NCBI GenBank assembly: GCA_963665235.2
Contig: CAXXLX010000001.1
Coordinates: forward strand, 3,872,001-3,936,000
Source of the DNA: Candidatus Poribacteria bacterium
Lineage (GTDB): Bacteria > Poribacteria > WGA-4E > WGA-3G
Length of the DNA stretch: 64,000 bases
Direction of reading: 5' to 3'
Under the pieces are notes generated by a model. That model had not been told where the DNA came from. It ran no database searches and worked only from the letters and a program-made list of their open reading frames with translations. A program made the position numbers and the translations under genes. How positions within the stretch are numbered: position 1 is the stretch's first letter; each line of letters opens with the position of its first letter. Below, in pieces: positions 54,772 to 63,795 of the stretch.

Positions 54772-55877
54772 AACACCTAAACCTCCGCATGTATGCAATG
54801 GTGTTTGCCCTGCTCGGTGTCTGGGTAATTTTCAGCCTACTGACTGGTGGCACCTTCCTCAGCACTCGGAACCTTTCCAACCTCTCTCGTCAAGCGGTGG
54901 AGACAGCTATTCTCGCCGTTGGCATGACGCTTGTCATCGTTTCCGCGAACATTGACCTATCCGTAGGCTACGGTGCTGGGTTGCTCGGCGCGATCACAGC
55001 GATTCTGCACGTTTGGTGGGGGCAACCGATTATTTTAACACTCCTTGCTGTTATCTGTGTCGGTGTCCTGATAGGCGCGCTGCACGGTTATCTGGTAGCG
55101 TATCAGCGAATTCCGGCGTTTATCGTCACACTGGGCGGCTTTTTGGCATACCGCGGGTTGATGTTAGCCTTTACTAAAGGCGAGACTATCCTGCTTCCCG
55201 ATAATTGGTTGAAAGCTCTCGGCGGGGCTTACCTGCCACACACACTCGGATGGGGTATTCTAATTGTTGCGCTTGGTGTAAGTGGATACCTGTTTTTCAA
55301 TCAATTTACAAAACCGCAGTCGGAACGTACCTACAAAACGTATCTCCCCACAATTTTCAAAATAATTGGGACGTGGGGGGGACTTATCGCGTTCGTCACA
55401 GTGATGAATTCTCACAAAGGGATTCCGATGCCGGTATGTGTTCTGTCTGGGTTGGTATTTCTATTTCATTTTGTAGCGAATCACACCCGTTTTGGGCGTT
55501 ATGTCTATGCTGTCGGTGGTAACGCGGAGGCGGCGTATCTCTCCGGGGTCAATGTCCGCAGCGTTACACTACGGGTTTTTGCGACGATGGGGGCACTCAT
55601 GGCAATTGCTGGCGTTGTCTTGACCGCACGTGTCGGGAGTGCTAGTCCGGAAGCAGGACGTTTGCTGGAATTAGATGCGATTGCTGCATGTGTTATCGGC
55701 GGTGCCAGTTTAATGGGTGGACGCGGTAGCATTTTCGGGGCCGTTTTGGGTGCGTTCGTTATGGAAAGTCTGGATAACGGGATGAGCCTAGCAAATATGG
55801 ACGCTGCATGGCAGGATATTATCAAAGGGATTGTCCTTGTCGCCGCTGTCGGGTTTGACATGGCATCACGGAAATAA
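54768..55877 (+). CDS. Sugar ABC transporter permease (XylH/GguB-like)
   Basis: IDLSVG, IPAFIVTLGG, FGRYVYAVGGN, ELDAIAACVIGG. Confidence 0.9.
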   Translation: MKHLNLRMYAMVFALLGVWVIFSLLTGGTFLSTRNLSNLSRQAVETAILAVGMTLVIVSANIDLSVGYGAGLLGAITAILHVWWGQPIILTLLAVICVGVLIGALHGYLVAYQRIPAFIVTLGGFLAYRGLMLAFTKGETILLPDNWLKALGGAYLPHTLGWGILIVALGVSGYLFFNQFTKPQSERTYKTYLPTIFKIIGTWGGLIAFVTVMNSHKGIPMPVCVLSGLVFLFHFVANHTRFGRYVYAVGGNAEAAYLSGVNVRSVTLRVFATMGALMAIAGVVLTARVGSASPEAGRLLELDAIAACVIGGASLMGGRGSIFGAVLGAFVMESLDNGMSLANMDAAWQDIIKGIVLVAAVGFDMASRK

Positions 55878-56049
55878 AATCCCTCAGGTTGCGCCGCCCT
55901 CGATTGGAATTTTGTCCCCCCCCACAGTCGACTTCCTCAAAAAACAGAATTTTCCGACATGTCTCCATTTTTTTAAACCGTTTGCCGAAAATTTCCCCTC
56001 TTTTAACCAAACTCTAATTGGGAATTTACTTATGCATTACGATTTAGTT

Positions 56050-59000
56050 ATGCCCAATGACCTGACAGATGCGGAGCTCGTTCGACGGGTGCAAGCCCGA
56101 GATGAGGCAGCTTTTGCAGAATTGGTAGCCCGTTATAGTCCACGGATTTGGAGTACCGTTGTTGAGAATTCAAGGCAACACCGGGATGCTGAAGAAATTC
56201 TGATGGACATCTGGCAGGTAGTGTGGGAAAACATCAACGGACTGCGGAAAGTGGAAAGTTTTGGCGCGTGGCTGAGACGCATTACGTTTACTGCTTGCAA
56301 CAGATATTACAGCACCGGAACACACGGACGCGAAATTGTTCTAGACTACGAAGATTTGGCCTTTCAAATCGATAGAGATGCTGAACAACGTTTTCACGAT
56401 GAAAGACTTCGAGCTGAGGCAAGAGAGGCTGTGCATCACCTGCCACAGCGAGTGCGGCCCGTTGGAATATTATATTACCTTGAATTGTGGAGTGTCAAAG
56501 AGGTTGCAGCTGAACTTGGCCTAGCGATAGGCACGGTTAAGACGAGGCTGAGTGAAATCAGACGACTGCTCCGTAAAGAATTTGGGGTTGAAGAGGGGAA
56601 AATTATGTCACATAAACAGGAAAAACCTGCAAGTTTGCCAAGTAAATTAAAGGTAATCGGAGTCGGTGGTGCCGGTTGCAATGTGGTCAACGCTATGATT
56701 GAAGCCGGGGCATCGGGCATAGAATTTTGTGTGGTGGATACGGACAAGGCGGCACTTAGTGCCTGTGAGAGAGCAACGCAGGTGCAAATCGGTGTTCGCA
56801 CCACCCTTGGAAGTGGCACGGATGGCATTCTCGAACTTGGCAGACGCGCCGCTGAGGAAAACATGGAGGCACTCCGCGCAATTGTTGCTGATGCAAAGAT
56901 GGTCTTCGTTATAGCGGGTATGGGGGGCGGGACTGGCACTTACGTCGCCCCGCTGATAGCATCTCTATCGCGAGAACAGGGAACATTGACAGCCTGCTTT
57001 GTGACATGTCCGTTCGATGCTGAAGGCGAACGTTGTGCCGAACAAGCAGCACTCGGTTTACAGCAACTGCAAACTGCTTCTCGATATCGGGCAGATGCAG
57101 TCATTGTTGTGCGAAACCAACAGGTTATTGAAATGAGTGACCAGCAATTATCTATGCACGAGGCGTGTCAGAAAACCGATGAAATCCTGCTTTACGGCAT
57201 TCGAAGCATTTCGGATATCATCGTAGAGGCTGGGGAAATCAACGTTGGCTTTCCTGACATTCAGAAGATGTTGCGCGACCAGGGGAACGTGCTAATGGGG
57301 ATAGGAAAAGCAAAAGGTGAAAATCGGGCGAAAATCGCTGCCGAGAACGCCATCGCCTCACCCCTACTCGGAGACGCTAGCCTCGTCGGAGATAAGGTGA
57401 TGATTGTTAATATCACCGCATCCCCAGAGTTTGCAATACACGAATTAGAGCAGGCCATGAAAGTCATCAGGAAAACAGCAGCGGACGCACAACCTATTTT
57501 CGGATTGGTCTACAAGGATGAATTGCAACATAGCGGTGAAGTGGTGGTGACTATAATTGCCAATGGCTCCGATTTACCAAAGGAAATCGCTTCGCCAAGT
57601 ATGGATATGGTAGACGATGCATCGCCAGGGCAAGGTGCTATTATCTTACCATCAAACAGTTCAGACTTTGTGCATCTACACAATCACAGCGAATATAGTC
57701 TACTGGATGGCGCGTGCCGGATACCGGATATGGTCCAGTGGGCAGTTGAGCACAGCTCGCCTGCTGTTGCCATTACAGACCACGGCAACATGTTCGGTGC
57801 ACGGGAATTTTACAACGCCACGAAAGAAGCCGGTGTGAACCCAATTGTCGGATGTGAGGTGTATGTTGAAGCTGGGAATGGGCAATCTGAACCGTCCCAT
57901 CTCACCTTGCTGGCAGAGGACGCTATAGGTTACGCGAATCTCTTAAAATTGACATCGTTCGGATGGACGCAAGGTTTCCGTAGAAAACCGTGTATCACTC
58001 TGGAAATCTTACGGGAATATCACGACGGTATTATTGCCCTGACAGGGTGTATCTATGGGATAGTGCCGCAGCTAATCTGTTCGGATAGAAAAGATGAGGC
58101 ACTCCGAAACTTTTTGACGTTGAAAGACATCATGGGAGAGAATAACCTGTATGTTGAGATACAGAATCACTATCTCGATACGGAGTTGGCAGCGTATCCT
58201 GTGATGCTCGAATTGGCGAAAGAACACGACCTTCCTATCGTAGGAACGAACGATTGTCACTACCTCCGAAAATCTGACCACCGCATGCACGATGTGCTTT
58301 GCTGTATCCGGACAAGGAAAACTGTCAATGACGCTGAACGCCTAAGGTTTGACAATCATTTCTATTTCAAAAATGTTGACGAAATGCAAGCGGCACTTAA
58401 AACGTATCCTCCTGAGGCGATTAGCAATACCGTTGAAATTGCGAATCGATGTAACCTACAACTGGAGGACAACAAAAGTGTGATGCCGATATTTGAGGTG
58501 CCGGCGGGACATACACACGACACTTATCTGAAAACGTTGTCTTATGAGGGGTTACGTCAAAAATATGGAGGGCATCTCGCTGAACCGATTCGCACCCGAC
58601 TGGAATATGAACTGGATATCATCGAACAGATTGGGCACGCTAACTATTTCCTGCTTGTAGCAGATTATGCCACCTACGCGAACAGCCAGGGATATCCCTT
58701 CTCTGCGCGCGGTTCGGCGGCAGGCAGCCTTGTGCTTTACGCCCTCGGTATCATCAATTTTAATCCGATGAATTACGGATGTCTGTTTGAAAGGTTTCTA
58801 AACCTTGATAGGCTTACCACGCCAGATATTGACATAGATTTCCCCGGACATGCTCGTCAAGACATGGTGGATTACCTTGCGAAAAAGTACGGACAGGACT
58901 CTGTCGGTCGTATTGTTACCTTTACTACGTTGGGGGCGAGGTCAGCTATCAAAGATGTCGGACGGGCCCTTGAAATTCCGCTTGATTCCATCGAAAAGTT

Positions 59001-60291
59001 GACAGACCTAATTCCACACATTCCGGGAATCACGCTTGAGGCAGTTTTGAAAGAGGTTCCAGAATTTCAGACGTTTGCTGCACTCCCTGAAAATAGAGAG
59101 TTGATAGAAATTAGTCAAGCGGTAGAGGGGACGAAACGGCATGTCTCCTGTCATAATTCTGCTGTTGTGATTTCAAACGGGCCCCTTACCGATTACGTCC
59201 CACTTTTCAAAGATAAACATGGACAGGTCGCGGTACAGCTTGAACGAAACGCAGTTGAAGATGTCGGTGTCGTCAAATTGGATATCCTCGGTTTGTGTAG
59301 CCTCTCCAGCATCTCTACCTGTCTCAGGACGATTCAGGAAAACCGTGGCCGCAGGATTGCACTTGAAGATATTCCGCTTGACGACAAAAAAACCTATTCA
59401 CTCATCAGTGAAGGCTTGCTGGCTGGGCTTTTTCAACTTGAAACCTCTCCCGACATGCAGCAGGTTGTTACCGAGCTCAAAGCGGAAAATTTTGAGGAAT
59501 TTTCGGCAATCCCGGCACTCTATCGACCCGGTCCCATTGAAAATGGTGACCTGCAGCGGTTCATTGCAAGGAAAAATGGCATCGCCCCGACAAGGTACGC
59601 GCATCCATCGCTTGAAAATGTGCTTAAAAGCACTTTCGGTGTCTGTATCTATCAGGAACAGGTGATGAAGATAGCGTGTGAGATAGCAGGTTTCACGCTC
59701 GGCGAGGCGGATATCCTCCGTTCTGCAATGGGCAAAAAAGATGAAATGCTTATTGCGGGGCAGCGACAGAAATTCGTTGAAGGCGCGATGAAAAATGGCA
59801 TCGCCGAAGCGGAGGCGGAAGAGGTCTTTGAATATCTGAAATCTGTCGGGAGATATGCCTTCAACAAATCGCACAGTGTCACGTATTCTCTGTTAAGCTA
59901 TCGGATGGCGTATCTGAAAACGCACTACCCGCACGAATTTATGGCGGCGATGCTGACAAGTGAAGCAGCATATACCGAGAAAATCACCCGCTACCGTGCT
60001 GAATGTTCTGAACTGGCTGACTTCCTCGGCGTAGAAATTAACCTCTTACCCCTTGATATCAACCACAGTGAGAAGCATTTCACAGTGGATGGCAACGATA
60101 TTCGTTGTGGCCTTCTTGCTGTTGCGGTTTTGGGGGATGAAGCGATAGATTCAATTATAGCAGAGAGACATCAGCGAGGGGTGTTCACCTCACTCCAAAA
60201 TTTCCGAGAACGCGTGGATACGGAACACGTGAATGCGTACGCTATTGAAAGCCTTGTGGCAAGCGGCGCATTCAAAACGTTTCCGATGTAA
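56050..60291 (+). CDS. Fusion protein: ECF sigma factor + FtsZ-like domain + DNA polymerase III alpha (DnaE, C-terminally truncated)
   Basis: Sigma regions 2 and 4 (56050-56590); KVIGVGGAGCN and AGMGGGTGT FtsZ domain (56644-57567); FVHLHNHSEYSLLDG PHP, RGSAAGS, PDIDIDF, KLDILGL, YQEQVM, FNKSH (57667-60291); start 56032 or 56050. Confidence 0.9.
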   Translation: MPNDLTDAELVRRVQARDEAAFAELVARYSPRIWSTVVENSRQHRDAEEILMDIWQVVWENINGLRKVESFGAWLRRITFTACNRYYSTGTHGREIVLDYEDLAFQIDRDAEQRFHDERLRAEAREAVHHLPQRVRPVGILYYLELWSVKEVAAELGLAIGTVKTRLSEIRRLLRKEFGVEEGKIMSHKQEKPASLPSKLKVIGVGGAGCNVVNAMIEAGASGIEFCVVDTDKAALSACERATQVQIGVRTTLGSGTDGILELGRRAAEENMEALRAIVADAKMVFVIAGMGGGTGTYVAPLIASLSREQGTLTACFVTCPFDAEGERCAEQAALGLQQLQTASRYRADAVIVVRNQQVIEMSDQQLSMHEACQKTDEILLYGIRSISDIIVEAGEINVGFPDIQKMLRDQGNVLMGIGKAKGENRAKIAAENAIASPLLGDASLVGDKVMIVNITASPEFAIHELEQAMKVIRKTAADAQPIFGLVYKDELQHSGEVVVTIIANGSDLPKEIASPSMDMVDDASPGQGAIILPSNSSDFVHLHNHSEYSLLDGACRIPDMVQWAVEHSSPAVAITDHGNMFGAREFYNATKEAGVNPIVGCEVYVEAGNGQSEPSHLTLLAEDAIGYANLLKLTSFGWTQGFRRKPCITLEILREYHDGIIALTGCIYGIVPQLICSDRKDEALRNFLTLKDIMGENNLYVEIQNHYLDTELAAYPVMLELAKEHDLPIVGTNDCHYLRKSDHRMHDVLCCIRTRKTVNDAERLRFDNHFYFKNVDEMQAALKTYPPEAISNTVEIANRCNLQLEDNKSVMPIFEVPAGHTHDTYLKTLSYEGLRQKYGGHLAEPIRTRLEYELDIIEQIGHANYFLLVADYATYANSQGYPFSARGSAAGSLVLYALGIINFNPMNYGCLFERFLNLDRLTTPDIDIDFPGHARQDMVDYLAKKYGQDSVGRIVTFTTLGARSAIKDVGRALEIPLDSIEKLTDLIPHIPGITLEAVLKEVPEFQTFAALPENRELIEISQAVEGTKRHVSCHNSAVVISNGPLTDYVPLFKDKHGQVAVQLERNAVEDVGVVKLDILGLCSLSSISTCLRTIQENRGRRIALEDIPLDDKKTYSLISEGLLAGLFQLETSPDMQQVVTELKAENFEEFSAIPALYRPGPIENGDLQRFIARKNGIAPTRYAHPSLENVLKSTFGVCIYQEQVMKIACEIAGFTLGEADILRSAMGKKDEMLIAGQRQKFVEGAMKNGIAEAEAEEVFEYLKSVGRYAFNKSHSVTYSLLSYRMAYLKTHYPHEFMAAMLTSEAAYTEKITRYRAECSELADFLGVEINLLPLDINHSEKHFTVDGNDIRCGLLAVAVLGDEAIDSIIAERHQRGVFTSLQNFRERVDTEHVNAYAIESLVASGAFKTFPM

Positions 60292-60506
60292 ACGTTAGCG
60301 TGTGTGAAAAAAGAGCTCAACAAACAGAACTATATAGTGTAAAATTACTAAACTTTGGACAATTTTAGGGTGTGTCCAGTTTTTGTCAAAGGGATAGGTG
60401 GAAGATTGGAAGGGGGGAAGGCTGGAAGACTGGAAGCAGGGTGTGTAAAGTTTTTGTACGTCTGCGATATTTTTTCTGAAGAAAAATCAAACCATTGGCA
60501 ACTAAT

Positions 60507-60744
60507 ACCATTTTTATTAATTATTCTATCATTACCGGTTGTTAGAAATGAAACGGAGAACGGCACAAACTGGAAGTTTATGCTACGATAAAACGCACAA
60601 ACTGGAAGTTTATGCTACGATAAAACGCACAAACTGGAAGTTTATGCTACGATAAAACGCACAAACTGGAAGTTTATGCTACGATAAAACGCACAAACTG
60701 GAAGTTTATGCTACTACAAAGAGACATTTTCAATTAGAAATGGT
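60507..60744 (+). mobile_element. MITE-like family A (copy 3) with 5 x 32-bp REP units
   Basis: Same termini as the other copies; unit GCACAAACTGGAAGTTTATGCTACGATAAAAC at 60563, 60595, 60627, 60659, 60691. Confidence 0.75.
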
Positions 60745-60826
60745 ATAACATAACAGAGAACCAAAACATTTTTCGGAGGAACGCGGCACGGTTTGCAACT
60801 TACCTGACCAGACATCGATAGCGAAA

Positions 60827-61395
60827 GTGTCACATTTCTTTTTTTTTGAAAATCGTCCAAGGGGGTGTAAACGGCGGACAAACATAGATGGGGCGGGCGT
60901 TTGGGCACATTCAGCACCGAGAACCGGATGTTACACTTTGTGTCGAAAGTGTAACTTATGCACACAAATGGCACAAAAAATAGGAGGCAGAACCATCCGA
61001 AGAGTCCGAAGAACTGATACCCGAAAACCGTCAGTTGAAATGACACATTTTGTTTTTTTGTGTTGCGAAAAAGATAGGGGTAAATCGCTTGAAAACATAG
61101 ACGTGGCGTGAGTTTGTGCGACTGCAGCACCGAGAAGCGAATGTTACACTTTGTGTCAAAAGTGTAACTTATGCACCGGAGCGGCAGAGAAAAATAGCAG
61201 ACACATCGGTAAGAAAAGTAGGCAGAACTGATAAACGAAAACCGGTGGTCGAAATGTCACACTTCATTTTTTTTGTGTTGTGAAAAAGACGGGTCGAAAC
61301 CGCTTGAAAACATAGACGTGGCGTGAGTTTGTGCGACTGCAGCACCGAGAAGCGAATGTTACACTTTGTGTCAAAAGTGTAACTTATGCACCGGT
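60827..61395. repeat. ~215-bp degenerate tandem repeat (~2.6 units) with palindromic core
   Basis: GCACCGAGAA..GATGTTACACTTTGTGTC(G/A)AAAGTGTAACTTATGCAC near 60914, 61127 and 61342. Confidence 0.8.
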
Positions 61396-61750
61396 TTTGT
61401 ACAAAAACTTTACACACCCTCTCATCCACTATCGCTTGACACATCGACGCATTTTCCTTGACTTCACAACTTTCTAATGATATACTAAACATTGGTATCC
61501 TCTCTTTTTTCACAAGTTTATTATTTACTAAACTTTGGACAATTTTAGGGTGTGTAAAGTCAAAGGCTCTTTATAGATGGAAGGGTGGAAGAGGGTGTGG
61601 TCAAAGGGATAGATGGAAGGGTGGAAGAGTGGAAGGGTGGATTTCGCTTGTGTTGTCTGAATCACGGAAGGCACGGAGAACAGAGAGAACGCGGAATGGA
61701 AGGTGCGGAACAATCAAAGGTTTGTGATTATAGGTTAGGGTGTTGTTCTT

Positions 61751-62223
61751 TCTATAAAGATACCGCCCCGCTGGGGCTATTTTGTGGTGTGGTTGCGTTT
61801 TCTATAAAGATACCGCCCCGCTGGGGCTATGCTTTTGCACATTGGTGTCTCTTTTCTACTGTTTGTGTTTGTGTGAGCAACAGTGAGAAAAATCAGAAAT
61901 GCTTTGAAAATCGGGCATCAGGCTCACGGATATTGTCCAAACTATAGTATTATTTAGAAAGGATACCATTTTTTTATTTTCCTGACAACAAGGCTTTGTA
62001 CAAACAGTCCGATGTCTTATGTAGGAGTGTGCTTCGCACGCGACTGGCACCCCTCGACCTGTCTGGAATCCCGACATTCATCTTATGTAGAAACCTGCTT
62101 CGCACGCGACCTCCTAACGTAACTTGAGGGGAACAGTCCGCTCTTAGCCCCAGCGGGGCGGTATCTTTATAGAAAACCCAAACAAAACACAAAATAGCCC
62201 CAGCGGGGCGATATGTTTATAGA
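61751..62223. repeat. REP-like units of the 4521 family, two forward and two inverted
   Basis: TCTATAAAGATACCGCCCCGCTGGGGCTA at ~61751 and ~61801; inverted copies at ~62145 and ~62194. Confidence 0.75.
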
Positions 62224-62577
62224 TGTTAGCCAAACCCCGCTTCTTTCCGCCTCCGCCGCGTCCTCCGCACCTTCCTTGATTCAGCAAAAAATGCGTAGAT
62301 GTTAGCAACAAACCTCTTTTTTCCGCGTCCGCTGTGTCCTCTGTGTCCACCGCACTTTGCGGCATCCTCGCCCAAATGCGACGGGCATTCTGACAAAAAA
62401 AGCACAACATCCCTTAATCACAAAACCTTGACGCATACACACCTTAAAATCCGCGTAATCCGCGATAATCCGCGATTTGCGGCGTATTCGCCCAAATGCG
62501 CCGTGCATTCTGACAACACACGCGAAATCCACCCTGCCCCGCTTCCACCCTTCCACCCTTCCACTTATCATAGTGCA

Positions 62578-62741
62578 ACGTGAGTTTGATAATAAATGTC
62601 GGTTTGCACTAACCCCTATAAAGGTATCGTCCCGATGGGACTAAGATTTGGGGCGTGTCCCTCTGCTTCTATAAAGATAGCGTTCCTAAGGAGCGAGCTG
62701 GTTGCCGGAATACTAAGGGAAAACTTTTTCCAAACTCACGT
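62578..62741. mobile_element. MITE-like family C element
   Basis: Terminal inverted repeats ACGTGAGTTTG...CAAACTCACGT as in the nested element at ~21673; contains REP-like units. Confidence 0.65.
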
Positions 62742-62780
62742 TAGTACAAAAACTTTACACACTCATTCCGAAAAAAGAGG

Positions 62781-62998
62781 TTGACAAATAATTCTGCATA
62801 GTGTAAACTTTAAAATGAATTCTGTGAGCGAAAGCGGACCGAAAAACCATAGACCCTCACAGAAGGGGTTGAACCCTTATAGACTGTGGCTTGAAATGTC
62901 CATCTACCTATTTTTGGCAATTTCTGTTGCGGGAAAAAGTGCCGCTCACAGAAATGCAGGCTTTCATGCTATGTACAGTAAGGGTTGAAAACGCGGGC
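62781..62998 (+). promoter_or_regulatory. CRISPR leader with putative promoter
   Basis: TTGACA-17 bp-TAAACT (62781-62809); inverted motif TCTGTGAGCG (62821) / CGCTCACAGA (62943); abuts first repeat; the variant repeat lies at the far end of the array. Confidence 0.65.
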
Positions 62999-63788
62999 GT
63001 TGAAACGAAAAGATGCCCGATTACGAGATTGAAACGATACCGTTTGACTTTGGCGAGAATCCGATTCTTATTGATGGTTGAAACGAAAAGATGCCCGATT
63101 ACGAGATTGAAACACTGACAGTCACCATGGACGTAGCTGGCAGTCTCGGGTGTTGAAACGAAAAGATGCCCGATTACGAGATTGAAACTTCCGTCATATT
63201 GTTGCCCCGAAAAGTTTCTCGGTTAGTTGAAACGAAAAGATGCCCGATTACGAGATTGAAACTGAAAACATAGCATCAGACCGAAGTGAACAAGGTTTCC
63301 GTTGAAACGAAAAGATGCCCGATTACGAGATTGAAACGAGGAGACAGAGTTGTCCGGCCCGCCCGATGTGTTGAAGTTGAAACGAAAAGATGCCCGATTA
63401 CGAGATTGAAACCCCGTGTAAGCCGTCTATGGTGGATTTAGACGCGATTGAGTTGAAACGAAAAGATGCCCGATTACGAGATTGAAACGGTACCTAATTC
63501 CAATCCGATGGTGGAAAGCATCAAAGTTGAAACGAAAAGATGCCCGATTACGAGATTGAAACCCATCGGTTCGTTGGTAACAATCGGAGACAAGGTCAGT
63601 TGAAACGAAAAGATGCCCGATTACGAGATTGAAACGATAAATCTCCTCGTGGTCAGCTTTCTCACCTGTTTCCTCCCAGTTGAAACGAAAAGATGCCCGA
63701 TTACGAGATTGAAACCAGCAGTTGTCAAAATGGTTGACGGGGCGGAAAAGTGTTGAAACGAAAAGATGCTCGATTACGAGATTGAAAC
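62999..63788 (+). CRISPR. CRISPR array, 11 repeats / 10 spacers
   Basis: 37-bp repeat GTTGAAACGAAAAGATGCCCGATTACGAGATTGAAAC at 62999, 63077, 63152, 63226, 63301, 63376, 63452, 63526, 63599, 63679, 63752 (last has one C>T); unique 36-43 bp spacers. Confidence 0.97.
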
Positions 63789-63795
63789 AAATATT

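Follow-up and report, generated by a model that had tools for sequence, protein, structure and literature searches.

A 64,000-nucleotide stretch of a genome from a sponge-symbiont-type Candidatus Poribacteria (positions 3,872,001 to 3,936,000 of contig CAXXLX010000001.1, assembly GCA_963665235.2; hereafter the window) carries a gene in which an extracytoplasmic function (ECF) sigma factor, a paralog of the cell-division protein FtsZ and a DnaE that ends at about residue 884 follow one another in a single plus-strand open frame (55831-60291). Translation probably begins at the ATG at 56032, in keeping with annotated orthologs, in which the FtsZ part begins at about residue 196; with the stop at 60291, the product is 1419 residues long. 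The preliminary description of the region had spoken of a fused FtsZ domain, and the term is apt: the frame runs from sigma through FtsZ to DnaE with no stop between 56032 and 60288. Translation table 11 suffices, so that neither another genetic code nor a hidden stop is needed. Domain boundaries were taken from Pfam and NCBIfam profile scans of the translated open reading frame (ORF), and residue numbers such as Y113, C144 and G215 count from the ATG at 56605. The parts of the gene and the motifs of its FtsZ-like domain are:

56032..56604, plus strand: ECF sigma-70 domain (sigma2 + sigma4), residues 1-191 (Pfam, NCBIfam TIGR02937)
56605..57567, plus strand: FtsZ-like core, Tubulin/FtsZ GTPase domain and FtsZ_C (PF00091, PF12327)
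56659-56682, plus strand: T1, GVGGAGCN
56737..56751, plus strand: T2/H2 segment DTDKA (DTD at 56737-56745), N44 equivalent D, D46 kept, Q48 equivalent A
56809..56832, plus strand: T3 loop GSGTDGIL, in which the equivalent of G72 of Staphylococcus aureus FtsZ (SaFtsZ) is D
56923..56943, plus strand: T4 signature GGGTGTY
57010..57036, plus strand: T5/H5 segment PFDAEGERC, SaFtsZ R143 equivalent C
57241..57258, plus strand: T7 loop NVGFPD, SaFtsZ D210 equivalent G, D213 kept
57568..57657, plus strand: linker of about 30 residues, rich in P and S, where FtsZ would have its C-terminal linker and anchor peptide
57658..60291, plus strand: DnaE paralog with PHP, palm, fingers and HHH_6, lacking the beta-binding, OB and tau-binding end

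The sequence itself was checked against contigs from four public runs belonging to two studies, one of which runs may be the source of the window. A 933-nt contig matches 56620-57552 with 0 differences in runs X1, X2 and X3 (study P1), and contigs of run X5 (study P2) show no change at the codons for Y113 and G215. Since the motif changes are reproduced in contigs from two studies, they are not sequencing or assembly errors. Contigs of independent runs also bridge both the sigma/FtsZ and the FtsZ/DnaE junction and the fusion is conserved in relatives, which rules out an assembly chimera.

The FtsZ-like domain and its active site

The segment 56644-57567 on the plus strand translates to KLKVIGVGGAGC...VVVTIIANG, residues 14-321 of the domain. 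The six motif readings in this segment all stand, those of the preliminary description as it gave them, and the absence of the C-terminal anchor peptide is borne out by the lack of any [DE]IPxFL[RK]-type match in the entire 1419-residue protein. The same genome also encodes a canonical FtsZ (L001 1093-2484, minus strand; 386.6 bits, 463 residues) next to an ORF that Pfam calls FtsA; all its motifs are canonical and it ends in ...WDIPTFLRVKK. Every one of seven canonical Poribacteria FtsZ proteins has GGAGGN, NTD, GLGAGANP, GGGTGTG, RPF[ND]FEGxRR and NVDFAD, as well as a [DE]IP[AT]FLRV peptide, so the departures in the fused domain are real differences from the organism’s own FtsZ, with which it shares 55% identity (178/323). 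From the tubulin signature GGGTG[ST]G, the window copy keeps GGGTGT and has Y for the final G, at a position that varies among orthologs.

Profile scans recognize the Tubulin/FtsZ GTPase and FtsZ C-terminal fold expected of a cell-division FtsZ (PF00091, 122 bits; PF12327, 68 bits). Other marks of that protein are missing: the TIGR00065 score of 269.4 lies under the equivalog cut-off of 295.2, and an intact T7 NxDxxD with a full active-site set, the C-terminal peptide and the ftsA neighborhood are not there. Structure modeling, which the preliminary description had proposed as a check, gave an FtsZ fold: the AlphaFold model, built from a 42-row alignment, has a predicted local distance difference test score (pLDDT) of 87.4 and a predicted template modeling score (pTM) of 0.87, and its top Foldseek matches are solved FtsZ structures only. 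The best superpositions are on the closed-form monomers 2vam, 1rlu and 5mn6, with template modeling (TM) scores of 0.88/0.95 and root-mean-square deviations of 1.5-1.7 Å. The fit to open, filament-state SaFtsZ is poorer (TM 0.79, 3.4 Å), as is usual for such models, and nothing is drawn from it.

We mapped the domain onto SaFtsZ by HMMER alignment to 3vo8_A, with the offset checked on F138, G196 and D210 in PDB titles and in the SaFtsZ paper. According to that paper’s account of the active site, N44 and D46 bind waters of the Mg ion, Q48 locks K+ in the T7 loop of the neighboring subunit, G72 holds the catalytic water, R143 acts like an arginine finger and D210 positions the catalytic water, N208 and D213 also being named among the key residues (PMC8936486). 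In its mutant series, D46A, R143Q, N208L, D210N and D213N abolish assembly, and Q48A and R143K still assemble with a GTPase activity about 6-fold lower (PMC8936486). The window copy carries N44D, Q48A, G72D, R143C and D210G and retains D46, N208 and D213, so that five of the eight residues are changed. Given the SaFtsZ mutants, R143C, D210G and Q48A make poor hydrolysis and poor self-assembly, both suggested beforehand, the behavior to be expected of this copy by homology.

How far these changes extend through the family was read from an alignment of the FtsZ parts of 66 cluster representatives, all of which include the N-terminal part of the match. Two of the eight key residues are changed in 23 of them, three in 31, four in 7 and five in 5, compared with none in any of the seven canonical proteins. 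At the Q48 position glutamine never occurs (E in 52, D in 6, A in 3, N in 3, K in 2), and at the G72 position, glycine in 7/7 canonical proteins, a single fused domain has G (D in 55, N in 7, E in 3). The R143 position, likewise R in 7/7 canonical proteins, is R in 53 fused domains, C in 10, and L, P and H in one each. The D210 position is D in 60, N in 4, and G and E in one each; the glycine is private to the window genome, and P0003, the closest full-length ortholog at 82-83% identity, has D there. At the D213 position, 64 of the 66 domains retain the canonical residue.

The nucleotide-binding scaffold is better preserved. Four of the GGGTGT columns are invariant across the 66 domains and the other two depart once each, with S at 107 and A at 111; the residue that follows is G in 48, A in 7, S in 4, V in 4 and others in the rest, with Y in the window alone. 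E140, N171 and Q172 are invariant, the N26 column holds N in 60 domains and the D192 column D in 62; these columns include guanine- and ribose-contacting positions. The N26 column corresponds to nucleotide-contact residue N25 of the SaFtsZ study (PMC8936486). With GGGTGT and the N26, E140, N171 and D192 columns kept, binding of a guanine nucleotide is plausible.

Two subclades can be told apart. The window belongs to one with N44D, a T1 that reads GGAGC, no fixed residue at the end of the T4 signature and an insert of 4 residues. Members of the other read GDAGG in T1, with N44 and the T4 glycine retained. It had been proposed at the outset that substitutions varying at random among orthologs would speak for decay, and the answer is divided. 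The replacements of Q48 and G72 are fixed family-wide and are therefore not decay. Y113, C135, C144, R170, G215 and P217 differ from one ortholog to another or are private, with Y113, C144 and G215 being clade-specific or private, and therefore point to relaxed constraint.

Origin, constraint and loss of the module

The FtsZ part was searched for in 40 relatives, 24 of the same family and 16 from the order’s other families, and the forms were told apart by ORF length and, at 20 fetched loci, by Pfam scans. Within the family, nine genomes have the tripartite sigma-FtsZ-DnaE form (1349-1454 residues) and eight a bipartite sigma-FtsZ form (446-622 residues). Two DnaN-FtsZ fusions are confirmed (694 and 710 residues) and another, unscanned, is likely; of the remaining genomes one has a lone 316-residue FtsZ-like ORF, two have no full-length second copy and one is fragmentary. 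In the order’s other families, 15 of the 16 genomes have a single FtsZ, and no genome carries a fused form. A search of a large protein collection, restricted to lengths of 817-2601 residues, returned 102 proteins, about 70 of them with the sigma, FtsZ and DnaE Pfam set, and the named sources are Candidatus Poribacteria; the 66 aligned FtsZ parts come from this search. The fusion gene is specific to one Poribacteria family.

The paralogs of the family are 46-58% identical to canonical FtsZ. In a tree of 69 rows, all non-canonical copies, in their five forms (tripartite, bipartite, sigma plus half an FtsZ, DnaN-FtsZ and lone), form one clade with a Shimodaira-Hasegawa-like approximate likelihood ratio (SH-aLRT) of 99, nested among the canonical FtsZ proteins of this family on much longer branches. 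As the tree comes from a short maximum-likelihood search (LG+G4) in which several long branches meet, we rely on its starred groupings only. The FtsZ module is a duplicate of ftsZ made within this family. Within tripartite clades the bipartite form has come up at least four times, and two bipartite genes still carry a remnant of the PHP start at their end; loss of the DnaE part is therefore secondary.

Three further arrangements were seen. In the DnaN-FtsZ fusions of another genus, g2 (L029:5429-7510, minus strand; L030:5569-7698, minus strand), the paralog lies C-terminal to a complete beta-clamp. A third paralog of 406-425 residues, absent from the window’s genome, joins an ECF sigma factor to the N-terminal GTPase half of FtsZ only (L043:852-2126, L044, L045:915-2165, L046 and L047). 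In one genome from another family there is a second, unfused FtsZ-like ORF (L056:1366-3360, plus strand; 665 residues, 35% identical) with Tubulin and FtsZ_C only, followed by a long unassigned C-terminal part.

Selection was estimated by the Nei-Gojobori ratio of nonsynonymous to synonymous substitution (dN/dS) for nine ortholog pairs with unsaturated dS, a set to which the window’s own branch does not belong. For the fused FtsZ part, dN/dS is 0.15-0.42, compared with 0.018-0.064 for canonical ftsZ in the same genome pairs; it is 0.10-0.18 for the DnaE part and 0.07-0.18 for sigma in seven of the nine pairs, one partial sigma giving 0.43. The FtsZ part has the highest ratio of the three domains in 6/6 tripartite pairs and in two of the three others. 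The module is thus under purifying yet clearly relaxed selection and is the least constrained of the three domains. None of the 66 representatives has an interrupted reading frame.

A close relative of the window’s gene has lost the FtsZ core altogether. P0104, a protein of 1131 residues encoded on a 108-kb contig, shares 93% identity with the window in its sigma part and 95% in its DnaE part, and lacks FtsZ residues V17-K304 (288 residues); the flanks are joined in frame as ...KLK|DELQH..., and the junction methionine is valine. One contig each of runs X2 and X5 shows a matching 864-nt skip from 56649 to 57514, the shorter flank being 63-75 letters long; two linked variants, 56605 A>G and 56611 C>T, have the same depths as this skip. 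An 867-nt skip in X1 and X2 is weaker, with 30 letters only on one side. Over 56649-57517, core-deleted and full-length alleles appear to co-occur in the runs. Because P0104 keeps sigma and polymerase, the gene persists in the window’s immediate lineage without an FtsZ core.

Sigma and polymerase parts, start sites and surroundings

The sigma part consists of ECF-type sigma2 and sigma4 only. Sigma70_r4_2 scores 32.5 bits (cut-off 25.7) and TIGR02937 59.1 (cut-off 42.9); Sigma70_r2, at 20.9 bits, stays under its cut-off of 24 in the window and exceeds it in orthologs. What follows sigma is an extension of about 1230 residues, well past 50. C-terminal extensions are the second commonest mode of ECF sigma regulation, usually without an anti-sigma factor, according to the survey in PMC7826278; supplements aside, the main-text portions of PMC7826278 and PMC7671368 consulted contain no mention of FtsZ, tubulin, DNA polymerase or Poribacteria.

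The DnaE part matches positions 3-884 of 1146 of NF004226 and is 69% identical (611/882) to the full-length DnaE of the genome. It ends in ...SGAFKTFPM, and the genome’s own DnaE runs about 290 residues further. The PHP histidines and polymerase aspartates are retained in 61-63 of 63 orthologs. A split DnaE is ruled out, as neither the window nor the 20 loci from relatives have a downstream ORF with the missing end. The linker between FtsZ and DnaE is low in complexity in all tripartite orthologs displayed, after which DnaE begins ...SSDFVHLHNHS.

The genome of the window (5.3 Mb in 4 contigs) also has a full-length dnaE (1187.7 bits, a 1173-residue ORF) and 39 sigma4 matches, 16 of which lie within open frames of at least 360 residues. 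Fifteen other long-extension ECF sigma genes (L057-L071; 360-1065 residues) were scanned with Pfam; five have extensions that are WD40 propellers, seven give BNR/Sortilin-type propeller signals and three have no Pfam match.

Two putative expression signals accompany the gene:

55969..56008, plus strand: promoter-like element TTTTTTAAACC-N17-CCTCTTTTAACC upstream of the gene, recognized by its conservation, with a presumed promoter role
56593..56607, plus strand: Shine-Dalgarno-like GAGGGG and ATG at the sigma/FtsZ junction, in frame, a possible internal start

The junction methionine is present in 66/66 aligned orthologs. In 17 of 18 genes the ATG stands 15 codons ahead of KVIGVG; in the other, at locus L023, a non-homologous ATG stands 24 codons ahead. 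A GGAG-like core lies 4-16 nt upstream of the junction ATG in 18/18 genes, which are relatives and not independent, as against 42 of 413 (10%) other in-frame ATGs. The residues that this core encodes differ (KRGTT, TKENT, IKGEA, EEGKI), and the purine core stays. One gene call on a 5.9-Mb contig (P0042, 1230 residues) starts exactly at the homologous methionine, without the sigma part. The junction ATG may thus also give a sigma-less FtsZ-DnaE isoform. At the FtsZ/DnaE junction no conserved methionine is found among the ortholog genes compared.

The upstream element, also written TTTTTTAAACC-N17-CCTCTTTATAAC, precedes the sigma start in 17/17 sequences (the window and 16 loci), its second block taking the form CCTCTTT(A/T)TAAC. 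A search for a regulon with the strict pattern gave 3 matches in the window’s own genome against 5 for the reversed control, and the gene’s own site alone is meaningful. An ECF-consensus promoter (GGAAC...CGTC-like) was rejected, as 2 of 17 upstream regions matched and neither match is conserved.

The fusion gene sits after TatD and an ABC permease, not beside ftsA. Upstream synteny is conserved (SDR, TatD, an unnamed ORF and the ABC permease), and downstream neighbors differ between genera. Pfam scans of the neighbors gave SDR, TatD, ABC permease, a solute-binding protein (SBP), M23 peptidase, ComF-like and SMC; no anti-sigma domain was found among them, one ORF of about 270-288 residues in relatives having no Pfam match. 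No defense or effector gene is conserved beside the fusion in the window and the relatives’ loci. Directly 3' of the gene, 60300-62800 is an AT-richer, repeat-dense non-coding stretch. It holds four tandem units spaced by 32 nt at 60548-60720, a unit of about 127 nt that occurs three times at 60840-61394, and several inverted repeats, among them that of 61751-61829 with 62145-62223. A CRISPR-like array at 62999-63794, continuing toward the window end, has 11 copies of a 37-nt repeat, GTTGAAACGAAAAGATGCCCGATTACGAGATTGAAAC, spaced by 73-80 nt.

What the FtsZ module may do

Taken together, these features are best accommodated, with a probability of about one half, by a hydrolysis-defective, anchor-less FtsZ-derived adaptor or regulatory extension that is under relaxed constraint and nearly dispensable in the window lineage. 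The module is a duplicate of ftsZ that lies between an ECF sigma factor and a truncated DnaE paralog. It has lost the C-terminal linker and anchor peptide and, throughout the family, two gamma-phosphate “crosstalk” residues, the equivalents of Q48 and G72. In this proposal, it would still fold as FtsZ, probably hold a guanine nucleotide and be defective in hydrolysis, and it would not be the division FtsZ. Its role may be that of a passive association or regulatory module, serving as C-terminal extension of sigma and as tether for the polymerase, with its own sigma-less isoform or FtsZ-type surfaces as possible partners. The window lineage has gone further, with five of the eight key residues changed, R143C and D210G among them, and its closest sampled relative has deleted the core in frame. 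R143C and D210G stand at sites where milder changes block SaFtsZ assembly and a sister allele lacks the core, from which we infer that the window copy is probably non-polymerising and not required; it is probably non-catalytic and near dispensable, and not an evolved FtsZ inhibitor. These functional statements rest on sequence, on SaFtsZ experiments by homology and on comparative genomics.

Several observations pull the other way. Most orthologs keep the R143, N208, D210 and D213 equivalents together with the near-invariant GGGTGT, which leaves room for some GTPase or assembly activity across the family. Over 63 full-length orthologs, 103 FtsZ columns are conserved at 90% or more, and in the nine ortholog pairs dN/dS is well below 1; column conservation and low dN/dS argue that in most lineages the module has a specific task. 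Of these 103 columns the window has changed 8 (median 2) and ranks 7 of 63, divergent but no extreme outlier, and it also diverges elsewhere, at 32 of 445 columns in DnaE (median 7) and 4 of 98 in sigma (median 1), so that exceptional decay of the window copy is not supported by that rank alone. An AlphaFold model of sigma and FtsZ together, with a pTM of 0.60 and pLDDT below 50 at junction residues 185-201, gives no confident packing of the two domains. Finally, “nearly dispensable” rests on one deletion allele.

Other functions can be read into the same domain. The preliminary description suggested that it might cap or poison native FtsZ filaments, with the effect of SulA or MciZ. Such an anchor-less copy would dock on a filament end through one preserved longitudinal face, and the shared fold and 55% identity with the native protein, the missing membrane anchor, and the D213 equivalent kept in nearly all members would suit it; across the family, identity to the canonical consensus is higher on the T7 side (0.69) than on the nucleotide side (0.58; third class, 0.63), which fits a subunit that adds but cannot be added to. 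This asymmetry is small and appears too weak for a one-faced capper, however, since within-family conservation is equal on both longitudinal faces (0.75-0.76), and in the window both faces are altered, by changes harsher than the R143Q and D210N that abolish SaFtsZ assembly. The genomic context is conserved and looks constitutive, not of the damage or sporulation type, an inhibitor would have no need of a sigma and polymerase fusion, and the near-identical P0104 has dropped the module; we consider this role rather improbable. An atypical GTPase that still polymerises, as a cytomotive or scaffold filament carrying or positioning the polymerase, with acidic replacements of Q48 and G72 re-tuning its use of cations, seems very unlikely. 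It would fit the near-invariance of GGGTGT, the lack of exceptions at N171 and Q172 and the wide retention of the R143, D210 and D213 equivalents. The two family-wide changes, both to acidic or polar residues that are themselves conserved, the seemingly competent DnaE attached to the module, and the joining of FtsZ paralogs to replisome parts in two ways (DnaE and DnaN) would also suit it. Against it stand R143C, D210G and Q48A, which make activity of the window copy unlikely, the replacement in 65/66 domains of G72, which holds the catalytic water in SaFtsZ, the loss of DnaE at least four times in the clade, and one loss of the FtsZ core. If such a polymer exists, the less altered subclade, with two of eight key residues changed (for example at L035), is a better candidate for it than the window copy.

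The domain may instead report on the cell. A sensing role, of nucleotide, had also been raised beforehand. In another proposal, which strikes us as quite unlikely, replicas of FtsZ and DnaE (DnaN in the sister genus) wired to sigma would report, as transcription, inhibitors encoded by a phage or competitor or the state of divisome or replisome. The fused paralogs do copy the host’s own FtsZ and DnaE, DnaN-FtsZ fusions occur in genus g2, the FtsZ module has a dN/dS 3- to 20-fold that of canonical ftsZ, its catalytic site is disabled with the fold retained, and the genome is rich in sigma-sensor fusions. Yet no defense or effector neighbor is conserved and downstream genes differ between genera, every dN/dS is below 1 with no positive selection seen at this resolution, the promoter-like pattern yields no regulon, and DnaE keeps its catalytic residues, for which a decoy would have no use. 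The most far-reaching version, which we regard as unlikely, has sigma hard-wired to replicas of the division and replication core, the disabled FtsZ sensing phage or competitor attack (an “integrated decoy”) or how far the divisome has assembled, sigma-dependent transcription as the output, and the internal start giving a sigma-less competitor isoform. At the opposite extreme, the FtsZ segment could be a functionless relic in the whole family, a spacer in decay that separates sigma from DnaE. Its dN/dS, in most pairs the highest among the three domains, the varying states of key residues and the piecemeal loss of modules (bipartite forms, the paralog of sigma and half an FtsZ, the P0104 deletion) would agree with this, but the ratios are far from 1, the conserved columns and the frame open in 66/66 representatives speak for constraint, and module loss usually hits DnaE with FtsZ retained (eight bipartite genomes), so that a family-wide relic is highly improbable.

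The adaptor or regulatory extension that we favor can be set beside several known systems. With cell-division FtsZ (TIGR00065; SaFtsZ 3vo8/7ojc, Bacillus subtilis 2vam) it shares the two-domain fold, GGGTGT and the guanine- and ribose-contact columns, and it differs in scoring below the cut-off, in 5/8 key residues, in having no tail, in lying away from ftsA and in being part of a 1419-residue fusion. The likeness to SulA and MciZ lies only in the function first proposed: the fused domain is itself an FtsZ, Pfam and NCBIfam scans gave no SulA or MciZ family match in the fusion, and the FtsZ:MciZ complex 4u39 is among the fold matches through its FtsZ chain. Magnetosome FtsZm is another short, tail-less FtsZ paralog. 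Like the extra FtsZ homologs of Agrobacterium tumefaciens described in bioRxiv 10.1101/412759, the Poribacteria copies derive from the housekeeping gene and lack the anchor-binding tail; two of the three Agrobacterium FtsZ homologs are there reported to retain GTPase and to co-polymerise, whereas the Poribacteria family has active-site residues replaced and is covalently joined to other proteins. FtsZl1 and FtsZl2, as presented in PMC2875224, are also divergent members of the FtsZ-tubulin superfamily with proposed non-division roles, but they are ancient and distant, and the Poribacteria paralog is a recent, family-level duplicate. Among ECF sigma factors, ECF41 and ECF56 with SnoaL-like, ECF42 with TPR and ECF238 with Cys-rich extensions, as treated in PMC7826278, have the same sigma2 and sigma4 core with a long C-terminal extension, which here is an FtsZ paralog with a DNA polymerase core. 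Literature on Poribacteria FtsZ, on a sigma-FtsZ-DnaE fusion and on ECF factors with an FtsZ extension yielded nothing on this gene.

FtsZ paralogs freed from division are rare and mostly ancient, and the one in Poribacteria is young and comes from the host’s own ftsZ. Its losses can be placed in a datable order, with the tail going first, the Q48/G72 site next, R143 and D210 after it and the whole core last, which makes the family a natural experiment on which FtsZ residues may go once the division role ends. Built-in extensions of ECF sigma factors now also include a cytoskeletal protein and the core of a replicative polymerase. Should the module bind native FtsZ or sense nucleotide, a single polypeptide would directly link transcription, division and replication in an uncultured symbiont lineage.

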